53,509 nucleotides of DNA from a virus. Taxonomy: Duplodnaviria > Caudoviricetes. This document shows, one piece after another, positions 1 to 51,769 of the stretch (position 1 is its first letter; each line of letters begins with the position of its first letter). Made by a program: the position numbers and the translations under genes. Under the pieces are notes generated by a model. It made no database searches. It was not told the DNA's origin and saw only the letters and a program-made list of their open reading frames with translations. The stretch lies in the IMG/VR virus record IMGVR_UViG_3300028045_000002, positions 1 to 53,509 of that record. One strand, 5' to 3'.

Positions 1-127
1 TATCGACTTCATTCTCCTAAAGAAATGCGCCTTTGCGTATTCAGGCATGTAGTGGGAGTTGTTGCCATCAGTAAACTTGAAAGCCTGAAATGCCACAACC
101 GTCTTATTGTCAACACTGACATCCGTG
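1..127. repeat. Exact 127-nt terminal direct repeat, copy 1 (circular contig overlap)
   Basis: tatcgacttc...acatccgtg at 1-127 is identical to 53383-53509. 127 is a common de Bruijn k-mer size, and an ORF reads in frame across the junction. Confidence 0.97.
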
Positions 128-3100
128 TTGAAGATCAGGAATGGATTACTGAAGTCGCCAAAGTCGTACTCGTAAACAACGTAATACTCTACATACCCAT
201 CAGTGGACCAGCTCACCTCTCCGGGGACTAGATCAAGATCAGGGTTTGATATCAGCATCACATTGATAAACAGGTTTGTCTTTTTTGTGCTGTCGTAATC
301 ACGCTGCTTCGTGAGTGTCGCCAAATTGTCGGTATAATCATAGTCAGATTCTGCAACAATGTTTGACCCGCCACCGCCCACAAGATCGTGCCATTCACCG
401 TGAACGGCATACTGATTGTGGAGCAAGTCCCAATGAGTTGACAGGGTTGTGGAAGCTACAACCGTAGGCGCATTGCCCTGCCTGAGCTTTATTGCCGCAA
501 GACCACCAGACTCCGTGCCACGCTTGAGTCCAGCGACAACCTCGCCATAAGGGATGACTAGGATGGTGACACGCTCAGAGTATGTCCGACTACCCTCGAT
601 AAGGTAAACCGCCCACAAGGAGATGTAGTAGCCAACTCCAGCAATTGCGTCTTCAAAGCGGTAGCTGATTTCCGACGTAAACTCTCCATCAACCCCGTCA
701 AGTGGCAAGCCATCATCGGGGCCAATTGGATAGGCCTCAGAATCGCTTGTGTTGTAACGTATCAATACGTGCTCAAGAAAGACGCTGTCGGGGGGAGACC
801 AGTAAAGCAGGAAAACATCCTCTTCAGCTTGAGCGCTGACACGAGTTGGTACTGGGCTGCCGAACAGAACGCCAGCCGTTGCTGGCTCTGAGTGGAAGAT
901 GTCAACATCGCCATAAATGGTCATGTTGAAAACGGAGTAGCTGTATGGTCCATCAGCCGGAACCGTGGAATCAACAAAGGTGCTATTGTCAGACGATATG
1001 TCGATGAGGTGAGTCCCCTCGTTCCATCCCGGAGGAGTGCCACCAATTATGCGGCGTATCCTCACCATGTAAGGCCACTCGCTAACCGGAGGAACCCAGC
1101 CAAGGTTCACATTGTCCCCATCAATCCCAGCAACAAGATTTGCCGGAGCTGGCGGAATAGTGTAGAAGGGTGAGTCATAACCTGTCGTTGTCCACATGTC
1201 GTAATTTTCGAGGACGATCTTGAACTGCATCACGTTGTTGTAGTAGATGATGCCGCCACCAGTATCCAGCAACTCCGAAAGATTTACATCGAATGACGTT
1301 AGGAGGTCGTCTGAATCAGCCTCTGACTGTGCAAGGAATAGGACAAAGTCAGCCTCGACAGACCTCTTGTAGTGCAGACTAATGCCCCTAGTGGCTGATG
1401 GCCCAGAGCCACCGTCAGCCCACTCTGTGTCATTGGCTGGCAAGGTCCAGCTGAGGGAGACTGTTGGGTTACCGCTTGCGTCCCAATCATACACATGCTG
1501 CAAGTCAATGTCTTCGGAAGTGAAGCCCCACGCCGGAGAGGCTTCAGACGTTATCGAAAGCTGTAGCGGAGAAGACGGCTGTTCTGCTGTATCGACAGCG
1601 TAAATGGAGTAGTAGTACAGGGTCGAGTACGCTGGAACGCTGTCAATGACTGACAAGCTTGTTGCTCCGGCTGCGGCATACGAGCCGGTAAATGGTGAGC
1701 CCTCAATCTCTGTCCCTGTTTCATAGGTCGGGAATCCAGTAGTGCCCCTAAAGATTCTGATGGACTCCAAGTCTTCATCAGCTGGATTGTCCCATTCCAA
1801 AAAGACTGTTAAGTCGTCAACTGAGATGGACCCGTTAAAGCAGGCTCCAGGCACATCATTCAGCTCAATCGTGTACTGGCCTCCAGTTGTGGCTATATTG
1901 CCAAAGTTGTCCTGATACGAGATGCCCCACCAGAATTCACCACCAGATGTCGATATGATCGGTAACATGATGTGGGGGTTGGCAACGACATCTGTAAACT
2001 CACCACTATCATCATCGCCCGGATAATCACCGTACCACCGCTCTTGAGAGAAGATGCCCCAGTGGGTGGCCTCCTTCCAGTCCGCCCAAGAAACCTGTTT
2101 GTGGCCAACATAATTAGTGCCAGCATCAGCGGGGACCGGAATTCGGCCAGCGGCAAACAGTGGGCCAGCAAACATGATCCAAACAGAGTCTATGTCATTT
2201 TCGCTTTCCGGCGGGAAGCTATTACGGTGAATCACCACACCATCATGTCCGGGAACGCCCATTGACAGGTAATGGAAAATTGAGACATCAGGGGCTGAAA
2301 CGTATCCATCGTCAGGCTGTGTATCTATATCGAGATCGGCAGCAGGCTTCCACTGGTAGAACGATTGAGTTGACGGAGTTCCATCCTTGGCGACAAGCCA
2401 CGCATTGAAGTAGTAAGTGGTGTCAGCAATCAAGCCTTCAAGAACTGAAGTCTCCTGATACTGATACATCGTTCCGTTATGGGGGATAAACCCCTGATGG
2501 GTTGATGACGGGTCATAGTCTTCGTTTATCGGCGTTCCAGCCCCAATGGTTGCCGGGATTGCCGATGTGGAGTACCTGATAATAATCCCGCCAAGGCCCC
2601 AATTCGGATCATTGTCAGGGTCGTTAAAGTTGACCTTTGGGAATGTGGTAGTATGCGTGATGCTGTAGAATGTGGACGATATCAGCTCAAAGTTTCCATC
2701 ATCAGAATCCTCGCCAAGGTAGCTCTCCCAATTCGGGGGATCGGCAGGTTCGTCACTGGTCACCAAGAACAACATTGTTTGCGGCTGATCTTCAATGTCG
2801 ACCGCAGCCATATCCCAGCGAGACACGGTTGTCGCAAGATCCACAAATCGCACACCCGCCGCCAAGCCGGTTGGGCTGGTGTCCAGCGAACGTAAATCTG
2901 TCCCAGACGTTACGTCAAAATCAAGACCAAGCACATGGGCCGAATAGTCTTCTGGGAAGCCAGCGGAATACGTCCTTGTCGGGCTATAGGCTGGAGTGTA
3001 TGCATGTTCTCCAGTTGCGAGCATGTCATAAGCCCACCAGTCAAGCTGCCATGTGCTGCCATTCTCAAACGGGTTGCCGGGAGCCATCAAGAGCCCGTCC

Positions 3101-18553: not shown

Positions 18554-19692
18554 GAAACCTCCTTGAAGGGAAGACCTCAACTCTACCACAGCATCAACAT
18601 TGGTACTACTACCAAATAAAAAGAAAGAAAAGACAAAGAAAAGCTTGTACACCTGCAACTCTACGTGATAGCTTGACACGTGTGGTAGGATGGAGGATGG
18701 GTGGTTGGGACGTTCCTACAACTTCTTCTCTCATATTTCCAACAAATACATAGCTCTGTTGCAACTATCAAAAGCTTCCAACCTGATACAGGAGGAGCAG
18801 CAACAGAAGACACCAGCTCGAAACTGGATCCACTACATACAACTCTGGCCAGAGCCTGAGATGCTTCCCCGCTTTTCAAAACAACTCGTACTTTCCTGTA
18901 GGGTGTTATACCTACGGACCCGCCCCCTCCGAATCAGGGCCTACCGGTCCCCGATTCAAATGAACTGACTCAGCAGCGCAGGAACGCTGCTGATTCAGCT
19001 CCTTTGACTCGCTGACCGCTTGCCTGATTAAGCTGATTAGAAGCTAATCACCCTAATCATGCAAGTGCTCCTTGCAAGTTGGAGGACCAACTAGCAAGCA
19101 GCAGCGCCACGCACCAAGCTACAGTAGAGTTGATGCAACTCTACTGTAGCTTGTTGCTTAGGCTGGCCCGGAGGCATCGGACCCAAAGAGCAGCGGACGC
19201 TGCGGAACCCCTAAGAGGGCCGGAGCCCGATCAGTCTCCAGCAACGAGCCAGCGAAGCTGACACGCCGCTTCAGCCTGATCTGCTGACCACGAGCGTGGG
19301 AACGCTCGCTACTCAGACTCTTCAGTCGTGAGGACACGCCTTGCAGAGTCAGAGTTCAGCATCTCAGTCTTCAGTCGGTCGTTCCTCGTTCCTGAATCCT
19401 GATCGGGCGGAACAGAAGCATCAGCGTGAGGACACGAAGCTGATGCTTCTGGCCAAGAGGCCCCGGAGCGGATCCCTTCCCACCCTAGCTCAAGCTGCGA
19501 AGCGCAGCGTGAGCATTGCCCCATAATGGAATCTGCAAGCAAGAGAGCCTAAGACCCCCCAAGAAGCGGCAAGCAGCCACCGAGAACGGTGGTGTTGGGT
19601 TATTTTTGGGGTTATTCGAAGGTTTGTGCCTTCGTCTAGTGGGGTTAAGGGTGGAGGGTGGCAATGCCGCTACCCCCACACAGGAGGCTCTC
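18554..19692. promoter_or_regulatory. Divergent non-coding control region with a dense hairpin array
   Basis: No credible ORF; gene orientation flips here; more than 12 stem-loops, repeated CAACTCTAC motifs and an A-rich tract (18615-18642). Confidence 0.75.
19115..19153. repeat. Perfect 18-bp inverted repeat with a 3-nt spacer
   Basis: CAAGCTACAGTAGAGTTG-ATG-CAACTCTACTGTAGCTTG. Confidence 0.95.
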
Positions 19693-29593: not shown

Positions 29594-29616
29594 CCCAGCC
29601 AGTGAGCTGTATCCTG

Positions 29617-29651
29617 AAAGCAAGCCCCCAACTGGGGGCTTGCTTTTTTTT
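29617..29651 (+). terminator. Strong (probably bidirectional) terminator where the two arms converge
   Basis: AAAGCAAGCCCCCA-AC-TGGGGGCTTGCTTTTTTT between convergent genes. Confidence 0.85.
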
Positions 29652-31289: not shown

Positions 31290-34200
31290 TCAATTCAAAG
31301 GATTGGCAAGACCGAACAAGAGCTTGGCAACTTCCTTTTTATCCTTGGCATCACGCAAGCCCTGAACTTTCTTCATGCCAGCATAGTCAGGACTGATGAG
31401 CATCTGCTTCAGAGCCTCAGCCTGTTGCCCCCTAGCAATCATCGGCAATGTCCTGAAAGCGTACCTCGACCCAGCCGAAGAGAACTTCTCTGCAAGCTTC
31501 CTCTCCTTCTCCTCAAGCGGAGTGTCCGCCCAAATCTTTGAACCAAAGAAGAACTGAGAAAGCCTGCTATCATTCTGGAGCTTATGGAAGCCCATCCATG
31601 CCATGATGTCCATCATATCACTGATAGCTGGACCACTCAGCTGCGAAGCAACTGGACGCTTATAGAAGGCCCTCTTGCGCTTCTCTTCATCATCAGAGAC
31701 AAAGTCTGCCATTCCCTGCACAATCGATATGGCTGTAGGCTCAAACCATCCACCCATATCAGCATTAAGAACACCTGAGACTACCTGAAGGAATGGAATC
31801 AATGCACCTAGCCTGATCATCCATGCAGCCTCAGGGACAACACCCTGACCAGCAAAGTGCTGACTATCACCAGAGAGACCGGCCTCTTCCCTGTACTCAG
31901 TCTTCTGCTCAGGTGTCATCTTTCGGGTAGCCTTGAAAGCTTTGTACTCATCCTTGGTTCTTCTGGCAAGCTCATTGCCACTCTCTGCCATATAGGTTCC
32001 AAAGATCACATCAAACAGCCTGAACTGGAAGATGAATCTACCCCAATTTGTACGGAACCACTCCGGTCTACCAGCTGTAGAGTAGTCTCCGTTTATGAAG
32101 ATCCTCGCATCATGGGCAATGTCGATCGCTTTTTTCTCAAGGAAGCCCTGATACTTTTTCTTCCAGTACCTGTCCGCAGGTTCAAGCGACCCCGGAGAAC
32201 CGCCAGTCTCTCCGTGCCACAAGTCCAGCTCCCTTTCGTGAACACCAAACCTTTGAAGATAGGCAAACCTATCGAACTGTTCCCCATTGCGGGAAGCGGC
32301 CAATTCACGAGCGGCCACGGTCTCGGGAAGATGCTCAAAGGCGGAACGAATCTCCTCATTTTCTCCAATTGACGACCTCGCTTGACTGAAGGCTGTCGAG
32401 AATGCCCACTTATGCAGACTCATTTCACTCATTGCAAGCATTCGAAGAGCTTGGCTCTTATCCACAAATGTGTCCATGCTCTTTATAAGCTTCTCTGTCC
32501 AATGGCGAGGCCTGACCCCTTGGAACAGCCCATCAAAGATAGAGTCTTCCTTGTGGAGCAAATAGGGAGCCGTAGACGGATCCCAATCAAGAGCCTCTGA
32601 ATGGAGGATGCGCTTACCCTCCTCAGTCTCCATCCATGCCTTACCCGCCATCATTGCAGACCAGCCAACCTTGGTGCCATGCATCAAAGCCTGAGTGCTG
32701 TTCTGGACGATAGTCTTGAGATTATACCCAATCTTTGCGAAGGCCTGCCAAGCCAAGATGGCGTTGGCGATATGTCTGCGTCTCTCCCCTTTTTCATCCA
32801 ATGAGTGAAAGAGGGAGTCTCTACGGTGGCGCTCAAAGAATTCACCGATAGTTGTAACAGCCTTGAGCCACTCTTTGCGCTTGGCAAACTCTCCACCAAC
32901 GTGGCCATTCAGGACACGCTTGGAGTTGTGGACCCAGTTCAAAACTCGTTCGTAATTGTGATTCATTCTGGAAACATAAGCCGCACTCTGAACCTGAGCC
33001 CCATAGGTCTCGATGCTCATGGTTGCTGACGGAGAAAACCTCCAGCTGAATTCACCCTCCATGCTTCTCGGAACACCAACACGACTCCTGATGGCTCCCA
33101 TTGGCGGGGCAATGTAGGGGGTGCCTTGATACTGGCCATACTCCTCATAATACTTGTCAGCATACTCCAAGAAGGTCGGCGGCTTCTTAAGGCTCCGATC
33201 ACGAGCGAATATGTGCTCCTGTTTTGCTGTCCACTGGCCCATGAGCCTCTCAAAGTCTGACAGCCTGCCAGTAACATCACCAACCAGCGTCTTATCACGC
33301 CAAGCCTCCTTGGCCAGCGAGCTGGTGTACACCGCACCGGGACGAACCCTGTGCATGTAGCCAACAGAGATGTTGCTTGCCCGAAGCTGCGGCATGTACT
33401 TTTCAATGAACTCGGTGATTTCCTTTTCGGACACACCAACATGCCTGAGCCTGTAACGAGTGTAGGCCACGTTGTGAGCGTGAGAGTCTTGCACTATCGG
33501 CCAAAGCTTTTCGTGCATCTCCGCAACTTCAACTGAGAGCTTCTCAAGCTTGCTCGCTGTATCAGCACCGAATGTATCGGTGATCTCCTTTATCGTCTGG
33601 GCCCTCTCAACCTTTGCCTCACGAGCAATAGCCTCGTCGATAGTCCCCTGCATTTCTCTGGCTTTGCCGTGAGCGACATCAACCAAGTCCTTGTCAACCA
33701 CGATGATTTCGGGTCTGTCCCCATCCTTTCGGCTGACAGAGATCCTGTAGGTATCCTTGCTTGCCTCCCCAAGGAGCTGACCTGAATAGATGCTCTCTCC
33801 ATCTCGATCAACAAAGATGACTCTGCTATGCTTCGGGAGCCTGTGGTGAACAGGGCTTGCATCAATCCCGAGCCGCTTAAGAGCCCTGAGCCTTGCCTTC
33901 TTGTCCCTGCCAAACAGCTCATCACGCACGACTGAGCCAGAGCCGGAGAGCCTCCCAAGGAACGTGTCAAGGGCTACGGCTGCAACTCCACCAGCCTCAG
34001 CGCTGGTGATGACCTCCTCAAGCTCAGTTATCCTTTCCCTGAGCTTCAAGTACCTATTCCACACATCTCGACTGGCAGGTATCTCTGGATTCTGCCCCTT
34101 CTGTAGCTGCTTGTAAGCCGTCCTGACCCTGTTGGGGGCATCGTGTGGCAACACCTTGCCTTCAACCTGACTCATCACCTGATTGCGCTGATTGACAGGA

Positions 34201-37200
34201 ATGTGGTCCATCTCTGTATCATACTCAATCGTGTGAGCGGCTCGCTCAAGGTCAGCGTGCTCGGCAACCAGCTTCTTATGCTTGGTATGTTGTGCCATAG
34301 CACTAAGGCCCCTGATGGCAATCTTGGGACGCTGGAAGATGTTGCCCTTGGTATTCAAGATGCCGTCAAAGATATCGTAGATATGCTTCTGGACATCTGC
34401 GACAACTTTGGCTGCGTTTCTTTTTTGAGCTGAAGCCCTGATCCAGTCCTTGTACCATCTCTTAAGGATGGGAACACGGTTAACGAATGACCTTGGTAGC
34501 AGGGTCTTCTCAAGGAACAAGTTGACTCCACCCTTACCCATTCTCCCCAGTGACTTCTCAAGGTTGTATCGAGCATCACGCAGATTCTTCCATGTCGGAA
34601 CATCAAGACCGGCTGTATAGCCACCAATGTCAGAGATCATCTTCATGGCTTCTTCGACCCTTGCGCCATGGTCAAAGTACATGTCCTTGATTACCCCACC
34701 AAGGATCGGATGGTCCAGAATCTCTTCCGCAAGCTTACGCTCAGATTCATGAAGCTTGACCAGCTTCTTGTTTGAGATCTCCCCAGAGTGATAGAAGGTT
34801 TCAGCGGGCTGCGCTCCAGTGTCCTCAATGATGACAGCCTGAGACACCTTCCTGTTTGGTCTCTGTAGTCCACGCTCAAGCTCCTTGCGAAGCTCTGCGC
34901 TCTGGATTTCAAGGTCCAACCTGAAGAGCCTGTCTGACCGGTAGTTCGTGTCCAGCGTTGACTGAGTAAGCATCTTGTTGAAGGCTGGCACATTGTAGTC
35001 TTCGGCATAGTAGACCTGCCCATCATAGGCAGTGTTGGCGATAGCCCTGAGCGGGGAATTCTCTGGAGCAATGGCACGAAGAGCGCTCTTGGAGACATAC
35101 TTGACTCGGCCATCAGCAGTGTAGAAGATGGCCGTATCTTTAAGCTCAAGCCCCTTAAGATCCTTACCAACATTCGCCTGCATCATCTTGCCAATTTTAA
35201 CGGCAGCAGCCTTGGCTCCACGGGGCTCATAGATGGCGGCATCAGGAGAGCGCATAGGCATTGCAACGCCTACCCACTTAGTGCCATTGTGGACCAATCT
35301 TGGAACCTTACCCCACCTGCCAGCCTTACCCTGCTTACCCAGCGGGCCAACAGCGCCATTATGAAGCTGAAGCAGGATGTGCATGATGGTGTCATACGAT
35401 GTCGCATTCGGTATCGTCACCCCACGCCTTGTTCCGAGAGCAGTGTGTATTGCCCCTCTTGCTTTTTCAGAGTGGAGCTTGCCAATATATGCCTCGGGGT
35501 TGTACAGCCTGTCTATTGCCTTTGCAATCCCATACTGCAAATCAACCTGAGTCAGTCCCTTGAACTCCCACGCCTTGCCGACCTTTGTCGGTGTGATGTG
35601 AGAGAACTGGTGATTCTCAGCAAGGTTCCTCGATGTAGTCCTCATCACGCCATTGTTGGTGTAGCCACGAAGCATGGTGCCAAGATCGTTCACCATCATG
35701 GAGTTCTTTGAGACGTTATCCCAAAGCGTCTCCTCTACTCGCTCAAGCACCTTGATGGAGTCTTTGTTCTCCTTTGTCTTTTCAGGCACTATGGAAGAAG
35801 CATTGCTGATATGGTCATTGGCCAAGTATCTGGAGAACAGCTCTTGAGTGTAGACTCTGTGCATTCCTCCGGTAATCTTTGGAGTCAGCGAAGTCTCCTC
35901 AGCCCTAGTAACAAGCTCTTTCCTGTAGTTGTCGATGACCTCTGATGGCAAGCCCTCCTTTTCCATGCGGCGGATCTCTGGCAACCCGCTCGTGATCACA
36001 GAAAAGTAGCTGTCAATGTTGGCGGGATTCATGGAGTAGAGATCACTGAACAGGCTGCCAGCTGTGGCGACCATCTTGTGAGTCAGCGTTCCGTTGTTAA
36101 CGGTGAGTCTTCCCTTGGCATCAGCCCCAAAGCTTAGTGGCCGCTTCATATCAAGATTGCTACCACCATCAACGATATTCTTCAGGGTGTTAAAAGCCTC
36201 TATCTTTGCCACAATGCCAACCTCTTTTGCGTTGGCTCTATCAGGCTGAATGACTCTATTTATGTCACCAAGACCCCTTGAGAAGTCCTTTCTCGTGGCT
36301 TGAATTGCGGTACTTGCAGCCTCGCCAGCATCCTTTTCTCCAGTCTTGAGGCCGTGTGCCGGAAGCACCATCTCCCAAAGAGTCTTGTACCAGCCGGGAG
36401 TAACCTCACCCTTGGCCCCATGCCATGCTGGCTTGAGCTTCATCTTCTTGCCATCGGTATAGGCTTTGGAATTGAGGAACATGTACTCAAGGAGTGAGAG
36501 CTCTTTTTTTGTCCCGTCAGGCATCTCCACTTTGGTAGTAAGCCAGTGATCAACCTCTTTGCCAGTAGATGAGTAGCTGCCAGCCTTGACTGGGAGAATC
36601 TCTCCGTCAACAGCTGCCTCAAAATCTTTGCCTCCGGGCTCAAGTTTGCTGATCTTGAATTTCCCAGCTTTGATTTTTATTGGAGCACTAGAAACAGTTC
36701 TGGTTTCCCCGGCAAGTCCATCGACAGAGCTTTCTTGACCTTCCAAGGTCTCCACCTTGCCACGCTTTAAGGCCGCTTCAAATGTGGCTTTATCTATTTC
36801 GACAACAGTTGGAGTGGACTCGCCCTCAATATTTTCGGAGACGTCAAAAGTCTCTGGCTCTGATTCTCGCATTGCCTTAGCATCTCGAGCCTTGCCATTG
36901 AATCGTGTAATAGCATACTCACGAGCTTGACTCAGGTCGCCAGTAACTGAAGTGCCAACACCCTTACCGGGGAATCTGCGGCTGAACATGTCATCCTTGG
37001 CCGCAGGCAGAATGAGATTACCTTCAGCATCTACTTTGAATGCGCCAGACTGCCCCCTGTAAACCCTATCCTTTCTCTGGGTTGCTCCGCCCCAATCAGA
37101 GTCGGTAGTTCCGTAATACTCTTCCCTGGTCCCGCCTTCTTTGGCATCCGGAAGCTTTATCTTGGCTGGCTTCTTACCACTGATGACATCGAGGAAGTCT

Positions 37201-40200
37201 TTGGTTGTCTCTATCCCATCAAAGACTCCACCAATGAGGTACTTTCCATCAGCATCCCTTGAAGAGATACCCAGCTGAGCGAGAGCGGTAACGTCTCTCA
37301 TAAAGTTGGCAACCATACCGATACGCTTCTTGTACTCACGCTGCGAGGCGTTGTACTCCCACATATCCTTGTAGCCAGCAGGATCGGCAAGGATCTCCTT
37401 CATCCCAGTGAGGATCTCAGGGTTGATCTCATACTTTGACATCTCACTGATGTGATCCCGCAACTTCTGTGGAGTGTCATAGTGGAAGTAGACAACGTCA
37501 CCGTCAGTATCACGCTCAAGCCTCGTGATATCTTCGTGGTTCATCTCAACAAACTTGGTGTCCCTTGATTCAGCGACTTCCCTTGCATGGAAGGGCTTCC
37601 TGTCGTGCGGCCCTGTCCGTGGCATCGAGTGGCCAAGCATGTCGATACCCTTGAACTCTTCAGTGTGCCAAGCAGTGTCTTTGGCAAGGTGGTCAACGAC
37701 CTTAAGCAGGCCGCCAAGAGACTGGGTGTTGGGGCCATCAGCACCGAACTCCATCTCAAGCCTACCAATTGCATCTACAAGCTCAAAGTCAAGCTTGTCC
37801 CTGTATTCCTGAATGGACTTCTTGTTGCCGAAGTACTCTGCGAGAGTTGTAGCTTGTTCTTTATCTCCACCTCTCGCCTCGATTACCTGCTCCCACAACT
37901 TTACGTCATTGGCGGCGTATGGTTTGTCTCCAACGTATATCTTTGTGTTCTCGGTAAGCCTGCGGCTGGCAACTTCGTATGGTATTCGGACTTGACCCTT
38001 TTGGAGTGTTCCACTGAGATCATCAAAGATGTGTGCTCCAAAGCCACCACGCTGCTTGGCCTTGAACAAGCCCCGCTTGATGCTTCTGTTGGCAATCGTG
38101 TCGTAAAGATCTGTCGGGTCAAGGAACAGCCCCGGACTGATCCTTTCGGCAGCAAGGATATCAGCCACAACATTACGCTGGTAGATGCTACCCGCATCCT
38201 CAAGTGAAGCCTCGGCCAATCTCCCGCCCACCAGTGAGCCGAGAGTCTCTGGCCCTATGTCACCCGTCATCATCTTCCAGAACGGCCCCTCAGGGGCATA
38301 GAGAGCCTGTAAGCCCTCCTCCCTAAGCCTGTAGAACATCTCATGGGCATCATTACCGACGCTAAAGATCTCACCAACGTGACTCTCAGTTAGTGGATAG
38401 ATCTTGTGGTCAAACTCTTTGAGGCCAAGTTCCCTGATATTGAGGGCGTTCTTCATGACAGAGGCAGATGCATCTTTCTTGCCGCCAGCTATAGGCATCT
38501 CGCTGCTTTTTATCTTAGCATCCATCACTGCCTTGAGACTCTTCTTGCTGCCTGTGCCGTAGGCTTCCTTCATTGCCTTTTGAGTAGCCTCAATCAATCT
38601 CGGGCGGAACTGAGTGTCCTTGACAACAATACCCTTGGTTGGCACTAGGCTCCGGTACTCAAAATCATTGGAGTTGGTGTCCAATCTCACTTCATAGTCA
38701 CCATATTTGCCAGTATATGTTGGGAATCTTTCGTGACCACTGCTTACCACATCGGTAAAAAGCGGCTTGCCTTGTGTCATTCCGCCCATATCTATAGCGT
38801 CCTGACCATAGTTTCCGGTAAACATCTCTCTAAGCTCTACCCCGATTGCTCTGACCAGTGTATCCAGATTCCTCAAGTCTCTAGTTATCTCCCCACTGTG
38901 CCAGTCAGCCATGGCATTTCTGAATTCACCACCAGCCTCCACTGTGCCAGTACCCATGAACTCTGACTGTGGATGATCGACAATGTACCGTTTGCCAGCT
39001 ATCTCGGTTACTGCAACCCAGTGTTGAATGTTAAAGTTTCCGGCTGGAGACTTCGCATCTATGATGACAACCTTTGAGTCAAGCCCTTGATTCATCAGTT
39101 GATGCTGGACCTTGTTTGCACACCGGACACATAGATTCTTTTCAACTGTAGCTGTTGTGCCCTTACCAAGCTCGCCAATCTTCAACTCAAACGGCTTCAG
39201 TTCTAGTGGTGGCTTTGCCTCACTCTTGCCTTCAAGCGCCCTCACATCTGCCCATTCAACACCAGTCGGCTTGATCTTTGTGGAGTCACCAATGGACACC
39301 ATGTCAATCTTCTGGCCAGTCAGCTGTTCCAGCTTGTTCATGAAGGCTTCTGTATAGCTGTCGTTCCTGAACATGGGCTTGTCGAGGTAGAAGAAGTCTC
39401 TATCAGGATGAGAGGCAAAGAACTGCCCCTTGAAGGCATCACTGTAGTCTTTACCCATGACATAAGCGGCAACTCTGGCTGCATCCTGTCTCAGATACGC
39501 AGCACCATCGAGAGGAGCCCTGTTGAGTCCAGCGGCTTTCATCTCAGCCATGATCTCAGGTGTGGCATTCTCCAAGAAGAACACATTGAGACCACCATCC
39601 CACTCAGCATCTTCAGCCAGCTTACGCTTACCGAAGTCACTCTCCCTGAACTTCTTCCACTGAGTCGTGCCGGGACCATAGTCAAGGCGCATGAAGTCAC
39701 GGCCATAGATACTGTTAAGCCTGTTGGCGTAATCAGCGATTGATTTGCCAGCAACGTCAGGATTGAGGAGATTTTCAAAGGTTGCCTTATCAACAGAACT
39801 GCCCAGCCAAGCCATTGAAAGCTCGTTACTGATCTTGTTAGCGTCCCACTTGGCAGATCCGGGCTTACTATTCAAGAAGCTGAGCAGTGCTTCGGCTTGA
39901 TGCGACTTCATCCAGCTCTTGAGTCTCTTGCCTCCACCCTGTTCAACCTTGAACAGCTCATTAAGTAACCCCTGAACCTGCTCCCTTGCCTTGGGGGCAT
40001 CAAAGCTTACGGCCAGCATCGAGTCTGCGTTGCCGGGAATAATGAGAGCGCTGAGGCCGTCGAGGGTCTCGAGAGCTTCACGGATAGGCTCGAAACTATC
40101 AAGCGGAACCATCTCTCCCTTCCCATCCTTGACCCACTCACCGTTTTCATCCCGAACATACTTCAGCTTCTCAACGTCAATCTTGTCAACAGTCCTTACT

Positions 40201-43200
40201 GTGGCCCCAGACTTTTTGATAGCGTCAACCATACCACCAAGGCCACGGCTGATGAACCCATGCACTCGGGTCTTGATCTTTGAGTTATACTCGGTCTTCC
40301 CGGTTGACTTGTTCTCGGCCATAGTCGCAGTGATGGTAAGGGTCTCTCCGGCAGTAGACTGGGAGACCACATGGGCCAAGTGATTGAGCATCTTCTCAGA
40401 CACAGGGCTTCCACCCCAACGACCATTACGAACAGAGTCGTTGATCTCAGGAGCCTTTCCACCCTCAGTCACATGCTTAATGGCTTGCTCAACCCACTCA
40501 GGATCTCTGATACCAGAGAAAGAGTAGGCCCCATTCTCATCCTTGCCACCAAGAAGACCCTCAACAAGAGCTGACCTGATGTCTTCCGGGCTGATGCCCT
40601 GCCCCTTCTCCACCTTGCGCTTCATTGCCTCATGAGTCATTAGCTGGGCAACTCGCTCAATGCGAGGGTCAAGGCCGAGATTGGAGATGAAGTCACGATG
40701 TCCTGTGATTTCAAACCCCTGATTCTCCTTTATCTGGAAAACCTTGCGACCATCTTCATTCATGAAGCGGCTCTCAATGTCAGCCCTGAGAACCTCGTTG
40801 GCCATGAACTCACCCTCGATAGCATCCATCGCCTCGTTGATCCTCTTTGCCGTGACATCCTTGTGAATGGTGGACTTCGCTGTCATCAAGCTCATCTCCG
40901 GAGAGATGATGCCCATACCGCTGAGCGATGTGTAGATGTAGGATGCATATGCAGGGTTAACATGATTCAGGGCGTTGCCTATTCTGGCAACAGATTCAGG
41001 GAGATGTCCCTCTGACAGCATGATGCTGGAAAGCCGCTGACTTGCATCGTATCTGGCCTCGGAGTTCCCGCCAAGCACGATCGCCTTAAGGACGTTGAGA
41101 GTATCCTCAGGCGGCACACCGTCCACACCCTTCATGGGATCCCTCAAGATCCCAACCTTCTTCATCTCTTTAACCATATCCCTGAGCCAGAAAGCCCCAG
41201 TAGCCCCAATAACAGATTCAACAGCAGGGCCGATATCAACCTTCAGCTGGCCTCCCGGCTCAGCGGCACCGATGATCTCAAGAGAGTTGACCAGCCGGTG
41301 AGCCGCATTCGTTACGTCTCCACCAGCCAACAATGCAAGGTTCTTTCCGGTGACAACTCCAGTTTGCTCGGCAATATTGAGAAGGTTGATCCCCTTCTCC
41401 CCGACCTTGGCGTAGTTCGCCTCAAGGACGTTGCTCTGGGCAAGGGTTAAGGTAACTTCCTTGACTGCCCGCCCCTTTGTGACCGACTCTGTTTTCGCCA
41501 CCATCGCCATAATGCGCTCAGCAGGACTATCACCTGTGGGAGCAAGCGCAGGGCCATCGCCCCACATCTTGTGAATATCTTGAACAAGACCTCTCACCTC
41601 CTCAAGCTCGGGGGTATCCCCCTGAAACAGGGTTTCTCCAGACATGATACCGTGGACTCTGGTGTGAGGGGCAAAGTAAGCAAAGTCACGAAGAGCTGAG
41701 AGGCTCTCTAAGCCCCTCCCGCCACCAAGGTGGTCCCCCACGCCCTTATCAATAGCCCCAAGCCTCTCAGCAAGCTCTCTGGACTGCTGAGGGGAATCTA
41801 CGGTCAGTACTTCGTGGACCACTCCGGGAAATAGAGACTGTCCGGTACGTTCAGCCTTCGCAAACAGCTCAAGCTCTGCTGGCGTGGAGACATCACCCTC
41901 AACCTCAATCCTCAGTGGCCGCTTATTCTTGAGTAGGCCAGTCTTTGCAGAGACAGGAATCTTGCCAGTACCAAACAAGCTATGGATAGCTTTCTCGACA
42001 CCCTCAGACATTGCGGGGAGAGTGTCATTCTTCTTCATGGTGGAGAAGATTGACTTGAGCCAGCCAGAAAGCCTCTGAAAGACAGTCTTCATGGAGTCGT
42101 TGGGGGCTTTCCCGCTCTCAAGATACCGCTCAAAGAGCTTGGCAAAACGCTCTTCATGCTTTTTCTGCCACTTGCCATCCTTGATACCAAACTCAGACTC
42201 GATAATAGCGAGATGCTCTCCACCCAGGTCACGCCTGAAGAGGTGTCCTATCTCATGAACGAGGGACTGTAGATTGGGAGCATTCAGCCCTCGGATGACA
42301 GCCCTGCCATCCTCCATGAATGTAATCGAAGCCTTCTTCTCGCCCTCACCCTTCTCGACAGACGCTAGACGGGAGGCGTACCACTCAGCTGGATCTTTAC
42401 CCTCAGCCACACCCCAAGCATTCGCTCTGGCCTCAAGTAAATCTACAGCACTTCTGACCTGAGCCTCTGGAACATCAGGGAAAGCCTTGACGGCTTGCTC
42501 GACAATCTTGCTCTTGGCCATAGCACTGGCACTCTGCTCATCAGCCTGCATCACCGTGCCAAGAAGATCTCCCTCAACTTCAAGATATTTCCGGCCAAGC
42601 TTGTGCAACTCTTCACCGAAATAAATCCTGTCAAATGTTTCAAGCTCAAGATAGCCCGGACCCTTGCCGCCCACGCCAAGCGGAATGTGCTCTTCGAACA
42701 AGGCCTGCACCGCAGCAATCTTGCCGGGAGACAGGTTCTTGGAATCTATATTCAGTCTGCGGAGCCAGTGAGTTACATTCTTACCGAACTCACCCTCTGG
42801 GATAGCACCCTCAGGCGCAGTCTCCAGAGCCTTCAACACAGACTCCCTGAGTGGTCCAAGCCTTTTCTTAACCCCTTCGCTTTCCCAGAATTTTTCAGTA
42901 AGATCCTGATACTTTCTGAATGCAACATCCATTGAGATGGTAGCAAAGGGTGAGTCGTCAGGGCGGGAGATAGGGACACCGGCAAGCATTGCTCTGGCTT
43001 GCATGTACCCCTTGTAGCGGCTGTCAGTGATGGGTCTGGCGGCAACTGGTGTCTCAAATGCGGAGTGACTGGCCATCATCGTGGCAAACGTCAGGCTTGT
43101 AGCCATGTCTACCCAGTCAAGCCCGTGCTTGGTCAGGTAGCTTCCACCCTCACCAGACAGTAGCGAGCCAAAGAACTCTGGTTCAGTTATGACAGCAGAA

Positions 43201-44882
43201 GACAGAACTCGTGGGGCCATAGCGACACCATGCTTGGCCAAGTCCTTCCACATCTCCCCCTGCCATTCCTTGGCAGCCTGCTTGAACACTGGATTCAGGT
43301 CTTTCAGGATTTGCTTTGTGTCACCACGCTTTGCCAAAGAGATAAGCTCTTCACCGGCCAGCCTCATGTCTGACCTCTCGGCTATCTCGCCACCACGAAG
43401 CAAGAACTCACCGTTGGTCCGTGCAAGATCATTGATCTCATTTCTCTCGGTCTCAGTCAGATTCTTCTTCTTGCTCCAGCCCCTGAGCTTGCGGAGGGTC
43501 TTACCAAGAGAGCCCGTCTTGCCGATGGTATCCATCGAGATCTTGGTGCCAAGCATCTTGTTAACGCTGCCAGCACTAAGCTGGTAGACATCATTTAGCA
43601 TGATGTTATTAACCTTGCGGAGGCCTTCTGCGGTCTTCTGGTGCATGTTGACACCTTGGATTGAGCGGTTACGCTTCAACCCATAAGCGTCAATAATGTC
43701 GTTGATCGCCCCATGTTTTGATCCCCACCAAAGGTTCGGGACCATCTTGACAACACCGCCAATGAGAGCGCCAGCCTGAAGCCCATGCTTCACGGACTCC
43801 GGCACATCATGTACCAGCTGTCTTACACCTTCCTCACTCCAGTCGTTGTGAGCCACACCGTGGACAACAGTATGAGCAAGATTGAAAGCTCCAAACTCAA
43901 GGCTGGTCTCCAAGGCATTCCGGACCTGCCTTGCAACGAATCGACCCCACTTGTTGGTGATCATCTGCTCAACGCTGTTGATCGACCCTTTCTTTAGGCC
44001 GGTTTCGATGATCTTCATTACATGAGCGCCCTCTTCAGCCGTAAGCTTCCTGCCTAAGTGACGCTCAAATGCCTGAGATATCCTGCCAGTTGAAGCGCTG
44101 GCGGCATCATCCAAGATGTTCTTAGATGCCTTCTCAATGAAAGCCTTACTGCCAACACCGAGATCTTTCATCGACTTGGTGAGGTTCTTGCCCTGCCACT
44201 TGAACAGCTTGATGCTGTCTGATCCCCTAAGGATGCCTGAGGCGGCAACGCCAAGATCTGCCGAAACCTCATTGAACAGACTGCCTTCAGCCTTTATCCC
44301 CACAGCCTTCATAGTCTTCTTGGCCAGAGTGCCAGCCTCTTTGTCCAGCCCCATGGCTATACCGTGACCACGCCGAGATACCGTTGGAGTCTTACCGAAG
44401 AACCTCAGTATGCCACGCTCAGCCTTACCCGCAGCCCGAGCGCCAACAGCAAGCTTTGCAAATTTGGCAGGAGCGCCATAGGGGACAAGGAAGCCCGCTA
44501 CTGAACCAATACCAGAAGCAAGCTTCTCCTCAGTTGTGTCAATAAAGTCCGGATCAAGACCCAGCTTCTTAGCCAGTCCAGTGCCAAGGCCGAATGTCGC
44601 TGAGTCAGCGAAGCCCCAGAGAGCCGCTCCTGCGATGGAGAAAGCATTGGACTCTCCACTCATGGGCTTGCTTTGCAATGCAGTAGGGCGGCTCTTGATG
44701 GCCTGAGAGCCATCTTGGAAGTACTCATCAAGAGCTTCCCTTGCAGTGGCCTCTATGAGGGGATCGTTATCTTTGAGGCCAGAGCTGTCGATTACGGCCC
44801 TGACCCTGTCAACGAGATATTTGTGGAAGTTTGGATCTATTGCAGATTTGGATTGCAATTCATTCTGAAGCAGCGGGTCCAT
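31290..44882 (-). CDS. 4530-aa polyvalent virion protein containing a putative single-chain two-barrel RNA polymerase, plus zincin, papain-like and ART-like domains
   Basis: HEIGH (aa ~876); LDGAAYLR..FKGQF..DK..IDMVSIGDSTK (from aa ~1792); C-H-D insert (aa ~1918); MPRT..RLERDTDGDVVYF (aa ~2458); VYRG..TSVT..AREYA (aa ~2609). Lies in the ejection-protein position. Confidence 0.8.
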   Translation of the reverse strand: MDPLLQNELQSKSAIDPNFHKYLVDRVRAVIDSSGLKDNDPLIEATAREALDEYFQDGSQAIKSRPTALQSKPMSGESNAFSIAGAALWGFADSATFGLGTGLAKKLGLDPDFIDTTEEKLASGIGSVAGFLVPYGAPAKFAKLAVGARAAGKAERGILRFFGKTPTVSRRGHGIAMGLDKEAGTLAKKTMKAVGIKAEGSLFNEVSADLGVAASGILRGSDSIKLFKWQGKNLTKSMKDLGVGSKAFIEKASKNILDDAASASTGRISQAFERHLGRKLTAEEGAHVMKIIETGLKKGSINSVEQMITNKWGRFVARQVRNALETSLEFGAFNLAHTVVHGVAHNDWSEEGVRQLVHDVPESVKHGLQAGALIGGVVKMVPNLWWGSKHGAINDIIDAYGLKRNRSIQGVNMHQKTAEGLRKVNNIMLNDVYQLSAGSVNKMLGTKISMDTIGKTGSLGKTLRKLRGWSKKKNLTETERNEINDLARTNGEFLLRGGEIAERSDMRLAGEELISLAKRGDTKQILKDLNPVFKQAAKEWQGEMWKDLAKHGVAMAPRVLSSAVITEPEFFGSLLSGEGGSYLTKHGLDWVDMATSLTFATMMASHSAFETPVAARPITDSRYKGYMQARAMLAGVPISRPDDSPFATISMDVAFRKYQDLTEKFWESEGVKKRLGPLRESVLKALETAPEGAIPEGEFGKNVTHWLRRLNIDSKNLSPGKIAAVQALFEEHIPLGVGGKGPGYLELETFDRIYFGEELHKLGRKYLEVEGDLLGTVMQADEQSASAMAKSKIVEQAVKAFPDVPEAQVRSAVDLLEARANAWGVAEGKDPAEWYASRLASVEKGEGEKKASITFMEDGRAVIRGLNAPNLQSLVHEIGHLFRRDLGGEHLAIIESEFGIKDGKWQKKHEERFAKLFERYLESGKAPNDSMKTVFQRLSGWLKSIFSTMKKNDTLPAMSEGVEKAIHSLFGTGKIPVSAKTGLLKNKRPLRIEVEGDVSTPAELELFAKAERTGQSLFPGVVHEVLTVDSPQQSRELAERLGAIDKGVGDHLGGGRGLESLSALRDFAYFAPHTRVHGIMSGETLFQGDTPELEEVRGLVQDIHKMWGDGPALAPTGDSPAERIMAMVAKTESVTKGRAVKEVTLTLAQSNVLEANYAKVGEKGINLLNIAEQTGVVTGKNLALLAGGDVTNAAHRLVNSLEIIGAAEPGGQLKVDIGPAVESVIGATGAFWLRDMVKEMKKVGILRDPMKGVDGVPPEDTLNVLKAIVLGGNSEARYDASQRLSSIMLSEGHLPESVARIGNALNHVNPAYASYIYTSLSGMGIISPEMSLMTAKSTIHKDVTAKRINEAMDAIEGEFMANEVLRADIESRFMNEDGRKVFQIKENQGFEITGHRDFISNLGLDPRIERVAQLMTHEAMKRKVEKGQGISPEDIRSALVEGLLGGKDENGAYSFSGIRDPEWVEQAIKHVTEGGKAPEINDSVRNGRWGGSPVSEKMLNHLAHVVSQSTAGETLTITATMAENKSTGKTEYNSKIKTRVHGFISRGLGGMVDAIKKSGATVRTVDKIDVEKLKYVRDENGEWVKDGKGEMVPLDSFEPIREALETLDGLSALIIPGNADSMLAVSFDAPKAREQVQGLLNELFKVEQGGGKRLKSWMKSHQAEALLSFLNSKPGSAKWDANKISNELSMAWLGSSVDKATFENLLNPDVAGKSIADYANRLNSIYGRDFMRLDYGPGTTQWKKFRESDFGKRKLAEDAEWDGGLNVFFLENATPEIMAEMKAAGLNRAPLDGAAYLRQDAARVAAYVMGKDYSDAFKGQFFASHPDRDFFYLDKPMFRNDSYTEAFMNKLEQLTGQKIDMVSIGDSTKIKPTGVEWADVRALEGKSEAKPPLELKPFELKIGELGKGTTATVEKNLCVRCANKVQHQLMNQGLDSKVVIIDAKSPAGNFNIQHWVAVTEIAGKRYIVDHPQSEFMGTGTVEAGGEFRNAMADWHSGEITRDLRNLDTLVRAIGVELREMFTGNYGQDAIDMGGMTQGKPLFTDVVSSGHERFPTYTGKYGDYEVRLDTNSNDFEYRSLVPTKGIVVKDTQFRPRLIEATQKAMKEAYGTGSKKSLKAVMDAKIKSSEMPIAGGKKDASASVMKNALNIRELGLKEFDHKIYPLTESHVGEIFSVGNDAHEMFYRLREEGLQALYAPEGPFWKMMTGDIGPETLGSLVGGRLAEASLEDAGSIYQRNVVADILAAERISPGLFLDPTDLYDTIANRSIKRGLFKAKQRGGFGAHIFDDLSGTLQKGQVRIPYEVASRRLTENTKIYVGDKPYAANDVKLWEQVIEARGGDKEQATTLAEYFGNKKSIQEYRDKLDFELVDAIGRLEMEFGADGPNTQSLGGLLKVVDHLAKDTAWHTEEFKGIDMLGHSMPRTGPHDRKPFHAREVAESRDTKFVEMNHEDITRLERDTDGDVVYFHYDTPQKLRDHISEMSKYEINPEILTGMKEILADPAGYKDMWEYNASQREYKKRIGMVANFMRDVTALAQLGISSRDADGKYLIGGVFDGIETTKDFLDVISGKKPAKIKLPDAKEGGTREEYYGTTDSDWGGATQRKDRVYRGQSGAFKVDAEGNLILPAAKDDMFSRRFPGKGVGTSVTGDLSQAREYAITRFNGKARDAKAMRESEPETFDVSENIEGESTPTVVEIDKATFEAALKRGKVETLEGQESSVDGLAGETRTVSSAPIKIKAGKFKISKLEPGGKDFEAAVDGEILPVKAGSYSSTGKEVDHWLTTKVEMPDGTKKELSLLEYMFLNSKAYTDGKKMKLKPAWHGAKGEVTPGWYKTLWEMVLPAHGLKTGEKDAGEAASTAIQATRKDFSRGLGDINRVIQPDRANAKEVGIVAKIEAFNTLKNIVDGGSNLDMKRPLSFGADAKGRLTVNNGTLTHKMVATAGSLFSDLYSMNPANIDSYFSVITSGLPEIRRMEKEGLPSEVIDNYRKELVTRAEETSLTPKITGGMHRVYTQELFSRYLANDHISNASSIVPEKTKENKDSIKVLERVEETLWDNVSKNSMMVNDLGTMLRGYTNNGVMRTTSRNLAENHQFSHITPTKVGKAWEFKGLTQVDLQYGIAKAIDRLYNPEAYIGKLHSEKARGAIHTALGTRRGVTIPNATSYDTIMHILLQLHNGAVGPLGKQGKAGRWGKVPRLVHNGTKWVGVAMPMRSPDAAIYEPRGAKAAAVKIGKMMQANVGKDLKGLELKDTAIFYTADGRVKYVSKSALRAIAPENSPLRAIANTAYDGQVYYAEDYNVPAFNKMLTQSTLDTNYRSDRLFRLDLEIQSAELRKELERGLQRPNRKVSQAVIIEDTGAQPAETFYHSGEISNKKLVKLHESERKLAEEILDHPILGGVIKDMYFDHGARVEEAMKMISDIGGYTAGLDVPTWKNLRDARYNLEKSLGRMGKGGVNLFLEKTLLPRSFVNRVPILKRWYKDWIRASAQKRNAAKVVADVQKHIYDIFDGILNTKGNIFQRPKIAIRGLSAMAQHTKHKKLVAEHADLERAAHTIEYDTEMDHIPVNQRNQVMSQVEGKVLPHDAPNRVRTAYKQLQKGQNPEIPASRDVWNRYLKLRERITELEEVITSAEAGGVAAVALDTFLGRLSGSGSVVRDELFGRDKKARLRALKRLGIDASPVHHRLPKHSRVIFVDRDGESIYSGQLLGEASKDTYRISVSRKDGDRPEIIVVDKDLVDVAHGKAREMQGTIDEAIAREAKVERAQTIKEITDTFGADTASKLEKLSVEVAEMHEKLWPIVQDSHAHNVAYTRYRLRHVGVSEKEITEFIEKYMPQLRASNISVGYMHRVRPGAVYTSSLAKEAWRDKTLVGDVTGRLSDFERLMGQWTAKQEHIFARDRSLKKPPTFLEYADKYYEEYGQYQGTPYIAPPMGAIRSRVGVPRSMEGEFSWRFSPSATMSIETYGAQVQSAAYVSRMNHNYERVLNWVHNSKRVLNGHVGGEFAKRKEWLKAVTTIGEFFERHRRDSLFHSLDEKGERRRHIANAILAWQAFAKIGYNLKTIVQNSTQALMHGTKVGWSAMMAGKAWMETEEGKRILHSEALDWDPSTAPYLLHKEDSIFDGLFQGVRPRHWTEKLIKSMDTFVDKSQALRMLAMSEMSLHKWAFSTAFSQARSSIGENEEIRSAFEHLPETVAARELAASRNGEQFDRFAYLQRFGVHERELDLWHGETGGSPGSLEPADRYWKKKYQGFLEKKAIDIAHDARIFINGDYSTAGRPEWFRTNWGRFIFQFRLFDVIFGTYMAESGNELARRTKDEYKAFKATRKMTPEQKTEYREEAGLSGDSQHFAGQGVVPEAAWMIRLGALIPFLQVVSGVLNADMGGWFEPTAISIVQGMADFVSDDEEKRKRAFYKRPVASQLSGPAISDMMDIMAWMGFHKLQNDSRLSQFFFGSKIWADTPLEEKERKLAEKFSSAGSRYAFRTLPMIARGQQAEALKQMLISPDYAGMKKVQGLRDAKDKKEVAKLLFGLANPLN

Positions 44883-51254: not shown

Positions 51255-51769
51255 TAGTATAAACCTCCGCAATTGACCACTACTTCATCGGTGTAATCAC
51301 CGCAGTCGATGTCAACGAGATCATAGTCCACATCGCCACAATTGCCGACTACAAGATCTGCCGTGAACAACAATTCACTTGCCGCCAAGAAAGCCGCATA
51401 ATCAGTTGGCGACAAGGCACCGGCTTGCACTTCGCTGGCGAGATACAATTGAATCTCATTACCCCTGATCTGAAGACCGCTTGACGCTCTCCCAACCTTG
51501 AGGACAGGCGGCTGACTTGAAGCGGGAGGACTGTCAGCGTCTAGCGTCACCTCACGCCAGCGATCATCTATGAATACAGCGAACTTGTAAACCTTCCGAC
51601 TGTCAACTAGGCCGGAATCTTGAATGAACTTTTCCTGCTCAGACCAAGTCCTGAATGTTGACTTTCGCCCGACAGACTTTGTTGGGGGCTTGCCAGTATC
51701 AACCCTGAACGACTGCTCGAGATGCAACACCCTCTGAATTAGAGCGTCATATTCTTCCCGGTCGATCAT
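51254..51769 (-). CDS. Putative tail-associated protein
   Basis: Coupled to both neighbours; ASEVQAGALSPTDY fibre-like motif; IDCG/VNCGG repeats. Confidence 0.6.
   Translation of the reverse strand: MIDREEYDALIQRVLHLEQSFRVDTGKPPTKSVGRKSTFRTWSEQEKFIQDSGLVDSRKVYKFAVFIDDRWREVTLDADSPPASSQPPVLKVGRASSGLQIRGNEIQLYLASEVQAGALSPTDYAAFLAASELLFTADLVVGNCGDVDYDLVDIDCGDYTDEVVVNCGGLY

Follow-up and report, generated by a model that had tools for sequence, protein, structure and literature searches.

A candidate, very divergent two-barrel RNA polymerase module within a 4530-residue phage protein

Introduction

The question raised by the viral record IMGVR_UViG_3300028045_000002 of the IMG/VR database is whether a protein of 4530 amino acids (aa), encoded on its minus strand among late and structural genes, contains an RNA polymerase (RNAP) of its own. 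The window, by which is meant the whole stretch of DNA that was analyzed, is the complete record, 53,509 bp long and bounded by 127-bp direct terminal repeats, and the open reading frame (ORF) concerned occupies positions 31290..44882; its product is here called P0001. A preliminary description of this DNA had proposed that P0001 conceals a single-chain RNAP of the kind built on two double-psi beta-barrels (DPBB), one beta-like (barrel B) and one beta'-like (barrel A), and that the phage injects it. To judge from the available text of two reports, virion enzymes of this type have been shown by experiment in few phages, the crAss-like phi14:2 and the Thermus phage P23-45 (10.1101/2020.03.07.982082; PMC10770324).

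The answer reached here is a qualified one. To judge by comparison of sequences, we hold it rather probable that P0001 carries a genuine, though very divergent, virion-type two-barrel RNAP module. The conservation of the motifs, their order and spacing, and the profile matches speak for the single-chain enzyme proposed earlier; on the other side, neither libraries nor the PDB recognize it, and two of its residues are non-canonical.

Conserved blocks and catalytic residues

An exhaustive phmmer search with aa 1600-2750 of P0001 against 1.84 billion representatives gave 15 matches, and the family that emerges is tiny, with four metagenomic relatives (P0002, P0003, P0005, and P0012) among all those representatives. 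The parts of P0001 that concern the proposed enzyme are these:

31290..44882, minus strand: giant ORF P0001, 4530 aa, among minus-strand late/structural genes
39228..39590, minus strand: candidate barrel B (beta-like or DPBB-B-like), aa ~1765-1885, conserved in 3/3 sequences and with profile matches; conserved residues D1792 (39507-39509), K1818 of F-K-G (39429-39431), K1835 of L-D-K-P (39378-39380), and K1869 of S-T-K (39276-39278)
37152..38498, minus strand: connector, candidate barrel A, and bridge-helix-like segment taken together, aa 2129-2577, common to P0002, P0003, and P0005
37458..37670, minus strand: candidate barrel A core (beta'-like or DPBB-A-like), aa 2405-2475, invariant in 4/4 sequences and matched by hhalign; it holds S-M-P2421-R (Pro at nt 37620-37622), D2427-R2428, R-D2458-T-D2460-G-D2462, and H2467
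37263..37355, minus strand: bridge-helix-like segment, aa ~2510-2540, I-G-x-x-A-N-x-M-R, aligned with I-G-x-x-S-N of YonO

Every motif on which the preliminary description relied is present in P0001 where it had been placed: LDGAAYLR at aa 1791-1798 (nt 39489-39512), FKGQF at 1817-1821, YLDKPMF at 1832-1838, IDMVSIGDSTKIK at 1859-1871, HSMPRTGPHD at 2418-2427, and DTDGD at 2458-2462 (nt 37497-37511), with 666 residues from D1792 to D2458. P0001 has no DxDxD other than DTDGD, which as a bare motif proves nothing, because at ~6% Asp simple arithmetic leads one to expect about one by chance in 4530 aa. Its conservation, unlike the bare motif, exceeds chance. The block SMPRxGxxDR...RDxD[G/W]DxxxFH is the best conserved of the family, invariant in all four sequences that cover the site, and the barrel-A motif columns fall among the 37 invariant columns of the 449-residue region (aa 2129-2577), in which the homologues are 30–31% identical to the window. 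The loop to which the preliminary description had tied its proposal was indeed kept, as DxD[G/W]D, in 4/4 homologues covering the site, and so were the Pro block 37 residues before it and the His five residues past its last Asp. Upstream, the block formed by D-G-A, [FM]-K-[GA]-Q, L-[DN]-K-P, and S-T-K-I-x-P is kept in the three sequences that cover it.

The available text of PMC2919709 describes eight residues as invariant in all two-barrel RNAPs: (i) the three Asp of the DxDxD loop (Rpb1 D481/D483/D485, Qde1 D1007/1009/1011); (ii) the Arg (Rpb1 R446, Qde1 R962) and the Pro (Rpb1 P448, Qde1 P964) of RxP, the Pro lying 33-43 residues before the loop; and (iii) in barrel B, an Asp (Rpb2 D837, Qde1 D709) and a pair of basic residues 5-8 apart (Rpb2 K979 and K987, Qde1 R738 and K743). 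Six of the eight are present in P0001. D2458, D2460, and D2462 would form the Mg-binding loop; P2421, 37 residues before D2458 in 4/4 sequences, is aligned on the Pro of the crAss enzymes, of YonO, and of bacterial beta'; D1792 (D-G-A, 3/3) is the candidate for the barrel-B Asp, paired by hhalign, in what is a sequence alignment only, with the Asp that YonO and crAss have in D-G/D-A; and K1818 (K-G/A), the second member of the basic pair, is kept in 3/3.

Profile comparison with proven polymerases

The references were three families of proven enzymes, namely crAss gp66, with nine sequences (phi14:2 gp66, GenBank gp077, 2180 aa, and 8 of 140 tblastn records, all 140 being crAss-like or Flavobacterium-type), YonO with seven (YonO and 6 of 40 records), and bacterial beta' with three segments; the merged DPBB-A profile made from them has 18 sequences and 77 columns. 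Against this profile, hhalign gave candidate barrel A an expectation value (E) of 0.0026 as a sub-profile and of 0.016 within the whole 686-column profile, in a match of 72 columns in which the two Pro coincide, as do the two DxDxD loops. Column shuffling, repeated 150 times, never gave a score as high as its 21.47 (mean 10.7, standard deviation 2.1, maximum 21.4), and the reversed profile gave E 0.28. When single whole proteins were compared with the merged profile, the best match fell at the DxDxD block in 4/4 (E 0.14, 0.072, 0.01, and 0.025), while three proteins lacking that block gave E 0.27–0.57. With the three bacterial beta' segments, R-D-x-D-G-D-t-m-y-F-H was laid on N-A-D-F-D-G-D-Q-M-A-V-H (E 0.18, and 0.34 for the whole profile), and barrel A together with I-G-x-x-A-N was collinear with YonO barrel A and its I-G-x-x-S-N over 139 columns (E 0.039).

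Candidate barrel B matched the merged crAss and YonO profile in register (E 0.0091 whole, 0.035 as a sub-profile), with a score that 2 of 120 shuffles reached. The best match of the whole family profile fell on barrel B both with crAss (E 0.036) and with YonO (E 0.63), and the sub-alignments compared with crAss gave E 0.4 for barrel A and 0.11 for barrel B. These values have to be read beside those that two proven RNAPs, crAss and YonO, give with each other, which are E 0.061 for whole profiles and 0.027 for barrel B; alignments as shallow as these cannot prove even true relationships. The two barrels were matched separately, each with an individual significance near 0.003-0.04, and the likeness to proven RNAP families at both would be a weak to moderate one, of marginal to moderate significance in the profile comparisons.

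Family and modular architecture

Outside the candidate barrels, P0001 can be divided as follows, from the N-terminus onward:

42531..44660, minus strand: N-terminal module, aa 75-784, common to P0012 (BLASTP E 4e-77)
42243..42257, minus strand: HEIGH motif (HExxH, zincin-like), aa 876-880, from a motif scan
40332..41762, minus strand: conserved module preceding the barrels, aa 1041-1517, with counterparts in P0002 and P0012 (BLASTP E 1.6e-24 and 5e-23)
38475..39206, minus strand: papain-like Cys-His(-Asp) domain, aa 1893-2136; 8 of the 15 phmmer matches cover only this domain
36573..37145, minus strand: second inserted domain, aa 2580-2770, delimited by phmmer, of no named family
34830..36542, minus strand: module downstream of barrel A, aa 2781-3351, from the alignment of the relatives
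31326..34742, minus strand: C-terminal module, aa 3381-4519, a separate 1043-aa ORF in the contig L001 (BLASTP E 2e-125)

The phmmer matches split the query, with aa 1684-1879 shared by P0002 and P0012 and aa 2129-2577 by P0002, P0003, and P0005 (E 7e-56, 3e-33, and 9e-21). Both barrels stand in one chain in two of the five family proteins (P0001 and P0002), and P0012 carries barrel B only. In P0002 the modules that flank the papain-like domain abut (1079-1252 and 1255-1718) with no such domain between them, and the domain is therefore an insertion between the candidate barrels of P0001. In the AlphaFold2 model of P0001 this domain alone is folded with confidence, and it has a weak match to Tox-PL-2 of Pfam (aa 1914-1955, E 0.26) and weak local Foldseek matches to arylamine N-acetyltransferases, the PMT C3 domain, SseI, and TglA. 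The same domain occurs in the small stand-alone proteins P0008, P0015, and P0016 and at the C-terminus of the 2648-aa P0010. The second inserted domain is likewise found in small stand-alone proteins (P0004, P0006, and P0007) and in the 2057-aa P0009, none of them with a Pfam family. A circularly permuted SLOG domain, cpYpsA (PF12694), lies downstream of barrel A in P0003 (residues 503-643, E 1.7e-16) and beside the papain-like domain in P0014 (89-230, E 2.4e-21). This protein family seems to gain and lose effector-type domains by exchange.

As to the remaining modules, the one at aa 1041-1517 may represent an N-terminal domain of the polymerase, and P0002, P0003, and P0005 all terminate at the end of the module at aa 2781-3351. 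The sole PHROG match of P0001, phrog_9880 (function unknown), covers aa 906-951, just past the HEIGH motif; P0005 has three HExxH-type motifs in its N-terminal 600 residues, and no Pfam peptidase family was matched by hmmscan. A hydropathy scan found one strongly hydrophobic 19-mer in P0001, at aa 4354-4372 within the C-terminal module; a Gly-rich N-terminal stretch, considered as a membrane anchor, was discarded, as no 19-mer there has a Kyte-Doolittle mean of 1.4.

The only relative for which DNA is available is L001, a 13.8-kb metagenome contig in which the protein is split over three reading frames: an N-terminal ORF (3..1592, corresponding to aa 246-687 of the window protein, within the N-terminal module, E 9e-60), an in-frame stop, P0002, and the 1043-aa ORF that corresponds to aa 3381-4519. 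Between the N-terminal ORF and P0002 (L001 1592-1680) there is a single in-frame stop, with the frame the same on both sides; the gene may truly be split there, or the stop may be read through or be an error of sequencing.

Further searches for relatives added little. Among proteins of similar length no homologue was found, and among longer proteins only P0002; scans of IMG/VR with the family alignment, with P0005, with P0003, and with a degenerate DNA pattern gave no relatives, and the metagenome scan gave one locus, L001. Seven loci from a pattern scan of contigs were rejected, as they looked like chance matches, with stops or without an in-frame motif. Word searches of the literature found no paper on the family, a nameless family being hard to find by words.

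Genome context

The P22-like portal (PF16510, E 1.1e-68) and the SU10-type capsid protein (PF17236, E 5.2e-33) that the preliminary description ascribed to this phage were both recovered, and a terminase is also present; the other late proteins are mostly unmatched, with a PHROG match in 1 of 10. A second giant ORF spans the ends of the record on the minus strand (1-4554 and 51766-53509) and, when one copy of the 127-bp repeat is removed, forms an open stretch of 2073 aa in which position 17 is the first Met; its piece 1-4554 matched neither Pfam nor PHROG. Where the leftward late genes and the rightward early genes diverge, at 18945-19451, lies a dense group of inverted repeats with arms of up to 34 nt, one pair of 22-nt arms being 95% complementary; the region is a candidate for a regulatory element, a promoter, or an origin. 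The rightward gene block ends with a strong terminator-like hairpin (29616-29647, plus strand) of 14 pairs followed by a T run.

Weighing of the reading and its alternatives

A number of results weigh against the presence of a polymerase in P0001. In the libraries, no RNAP is matched significantly, whether in Pfam, in PHROGs, among PDB sequences, or in the phage collection: in the last, neither blastn nor tblastn found anything, and profile and sequence searches of the PDB gave chance matches only. As to predicted structure, the AlphaFold2 models have a mean pLDDT (predicted local distance difference test) of 48.0 for aa 1660-2590 of the window protein (8-row alignment) and of 41.6 for aa 1120-1725 of P0002 (5 rows), with the barrels below 50 in both; three Foldseek searches gave no match at E ≤ 0.001, the window model had no RNAP among the best 50 rows, and the P0002 model compared with BFVD had a named DNA-directed RNAP in 1 of 50 rows. 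In the profiles, known families left out one at a time score E 8e-7 to 3e-5 on barrel A, far better than 0.0026; the alternative whole-profile matches with crAss omit barrel A in register; single sequences put the expected site of barrel B first in only 1 of 3 (P0012, and neither P0001 nor P0002); a six-block chain of position-specific scoring matrices (PSSM) from the crAss family chose sites other than the candidates, at which the Asp, Pro, and DxDxD blocks of P0001 ranked 8th, 5th, and 6th and the lysine blocks 107th to 1357th of ~4520 positions; and hhalign of the family with gp66 alone paired Y-L-D-K-P-M-F-R with aa 258-283. As this best match to the single gp66 fell outside the gp66 barrels, short motif matches evidently arise by chance, and E-values overstate the significance, because the region was picked from 4530 residues for the same motifs. 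In the family, barrel B is missing from the proteins P0003 and P0005, which do have barrel A. Finally, of the eight catalytic residues, the Arg of RxP is replaced by Ser in 4/4 sequences, so that the unusual Ser two residues before the Pro, to which the preliminary description had drawn attention, is real, and a conserved basic residue 5-8 positions before the K-G lysine is found in 0/3.

Some of these results have a counterpart. An Arg stands directly after the Pro in 4/4 sequences and a second conserved Arg, that of D-R, seven residues past it; the crAss family likewise has no basic residue at −5 from its K-G/P lysine (0/9), and both families keep a Lys 13-17 residues downstream of the K-G lysine. 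The low-confidence P0002 model, compared with the PDB by Foldseek, has beta'-type RNAP chains in 42 of the best 50 rows (best E 0.63), which is a lead only, because the PDB has many RNAP chains, homologous to one another, and the model is of low quality. A further lead only is that aa 2330-2577, by their ESM features, lie nearest to RNA-dependent RNA polymerase (RdRP) clusters of PF05183, with a score of 0.83, below the 0.9 line; the ESM Atlas had no usable match for barrel B, and a predicted complex of barrel B (residues 95-235 of alignment A3) with barrel A (726-926) scored 0.04 against a mark of 0.32, with the fold of the partner uncertain, and counts on neither side. What was counted in favor of the polymerase is that none of the RNAP families PF05183, PF00623, and PF00562 appears in the complete 53.5-kb genome at E ≤ 10; the controls matched in 1, 14, and 14 of 14 genomes.

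The alternative that has to be taken most seriously, although we think it rather unlikely, is that P0001 is no polymerase but an ejected multi-domain polyvalent effector, or an ejection-channel protein, made of metallopeptidase, papain-like, and other modules; the DxDGD loop would then come from another metal-binding domain (a hydrolase, a nucleotidyltransferase of other fold, or a Ca-binding site), and its resemblance to RNAPs would be a coincidence helped by the selection of motifs. The failure of library and PDB sequence searches to recognize an RNAP, the one DxDxD that chance alone would put into so long a protein, the non-canonical RxP and first basic residue of barrel B, the negative crAss PSSM chain, the gp66 motif matches outside the gp66 barrels, and a DxDxD module without barrel B in P0003 and P0005 would all fit such a protein, as would the swapping of effector-like domains near the site (cpYpsA SLOG in P0003 and P0014, papain-like in P0001). 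However, it would not explain why two conserved blocks match both barrels of three proven families in the right order, register, and spacing, with scores that 0/150 (A) and 2/120 (B) shuffles reach, or why a His stands five residues past the last Asp, as in beta'; and no alternative family was detected either.

Much less probable, to the point of being very unlikely, is a relic, that is, a two-barrel RNAP that has lost polymerization and acts within the ejection apparatus as a structural component or by binding nucleic acid, leaving the transcription of all phage genes to the host polymerase. It would account for the displacement of two basic residues that, according to the available text of PMC2919709, contact the nucleoside triphosphate and the RNA 3′ end in canonical enzymes, for the Trp that replaces the loop Gly in P0005 (D-N-D-W-D), and for profile scores weaker than those of active families. 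Nevertheless, a family whose sequences are only ~30% identical to the window keeps without exception all three Asp, the Pro, the Asp of barrel B, and the K-G lysine, which points to selection on catalysis; the available text of 10.1101/2020.03.07.982082 describes gp66 as active with Ile at the Gly position; and, as seen above, the crAss family too is without the basic residue five positions before its lysine. The early region has no excess of sigma-70-like promoters (10, against 10.1 expected), a weak argument, as the consensus may not be that of the host.

Proposed mechanism and significance

If, then, P0001 does carry a polymerase, aa ~1040-3350 would constitute a very divergent single-chain DPBB RNAP, in which the beta-like barrel (aa ~1765-1885) would supply the Asp and the lysines, a connector with the inserted papain-like domain would join it to the beta'-like barrel (aa ~2405-2475), this latter would supply the Mg-binding loop D2458-x-D2460-G-D2462, and the bridge-helix-like segment would follow. 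By analogy with phi14:2 gp66 and P23-45 gp96, P0001 could be packed in the virion and ejected with the DNA, and would then carry out the first transcription of phage genes without the host polymerase. The fold, the catalytic activity, and the template or promoters used are inferred, and it is only the position of the gene among the minus-strand late genes that suggests packaging and injection.

A more far-reaching proposal, which we consider unlikely, would make of this protein a new family of two-barrel RNAPs with a rewired active site, the Arg having moved past the Pro and the first basic residue of barrel B downstream, with a papain-like domain in the connector or clamp, and set within a polyprotein of ~500 kDa, with a metallopeptidase, of a small, 53-kb podovirus-like phage; its own peptidases would cut it into the pieces that are separate genes in L001 and, once the protein had been ejected, would free the polymerase or control it. 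No virion RNAP is known in which proteolysis and the onset of transcription are coupled in this way.

Were the polymerase confirmed, the virion-RNAP strategy would be extended to a small phage with a P22-type portal, and to a family in which two “universally invariant” residues are displaced, which bears on what the two-metal mechanism of RNAPs needs. Likewise, domain insertion together with fusion and fission among the relatives would offer a testable case of how a giant ejected polyprotein is assembled and processed.

Comparison with known systems

The closest parallel in architecture is gp66 of phi14:2 (PDB 6VR4), like P0001 a single chain and a very large protein of the structural block, with the beta-like barrel before the beta'-like one. 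Its motifs T-D-A-Q (961), L-K-G (1011), Y-L-K (1025), V-K-V-G (1063), Y-R-I-P (1320), and D-F-D-I-D (1361) follow the same order as D1792, K1818, K1835, K1869, P2421, and D2458 of P0001, the blocks D-[AG], K-[GP], and [ST]-x-K included. From the Pro to the first Asp there are 37 residues in P0001 and 38 in gp66, and the block-to-block distance is 40 in all nine crAss sequences; the barrels are separated by 445 residues in P0002, 400 in gp66, and 289 in YonO. After barrel A both proteins have a G-x-x-A-N segment, which in gp66 is G-V-G-I-T-A-N at 1546, within the bridge helix given as 1529-1559 in the available text of 10.1101/2020.03.07.982082, which also places the connector and DFDID. The differences are also clear: from loop to bridge motif there are 63 residues in P0001 (2458 to 2521) and 185 in gp66 (1361 to 1546); the loop is R-D-x-D-G-D-x-x-x-F-H, whereas in crAss it is S-D-F-D-[IV]-D-K; S-M-P-R stands in place of Y-R-I-P; and the connector of P0001 contains a papain-like domain of 244 residues. 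Moreover, the phage of the window, of 53 kb and with a P22-like portal and SU10-type capsid, does not belong to the Crassvirales; tblastn of the P0001 region against phage records gave nothing, and the similarity to gp66 reached E 0.036 at best by hhalign, which is not significant.

The comparison with gp96 of P23-45 is one of descriptions. In the available text of PMC10770324, gp96 is a protein of 5002 aa in which a virion two-barrel RNAP is fused to a tape measure protein, and it was found in the way followed here, through a conserved DxDxD in a virion protein that has a metallopeptidase and otherwise shows no similarity to RNAPs; the same text states that two-barrel families often share nothing significant outside the DxDxD region. 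P0001 resembles it as a giant protein of the virion module with a conserved DxDGD as its only RNAP signature, a metallopeptidase motif, and a membrane-type segment. The two differ in that gp96 belongs to a long-tailed siphovirus and has its RNAP at the N-terminus, whereas P0001 has the module midway along its chain and comes from a phage that, to judge from its P22-type portal, would be podovirus-like.

YonO of the Bacillus prophage SPbeta shares with P0001 the D-G, K-G, and S-x-x-K of barrel B and the D-x-D-G-D of barrel A followed by I-G-x-x-[SA]-N, and gives the best collinear hhalign match of barrel A with the bridge segment (E 0.039, as above). In contrast, it is a non-virion protein of 839 aa, grouped with the QDE-1-type RdRPs (PF05183), and it has the canonical R-[SAN]-P and R-x-x-x-x-K-G, neither of which is found in the P0001 family.

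The virion RNAP of phage N4 is a T7-like single-subunit enzyme and has a different fold. Its likeness to P0001 is a functional analogy, not homology, and lies in the role proposed here, that of a giant polymerase (~3500 aa in N4) ejected from a short-tailed virion for the transcription of early genes, as the available text of PMC13434306 describes it.

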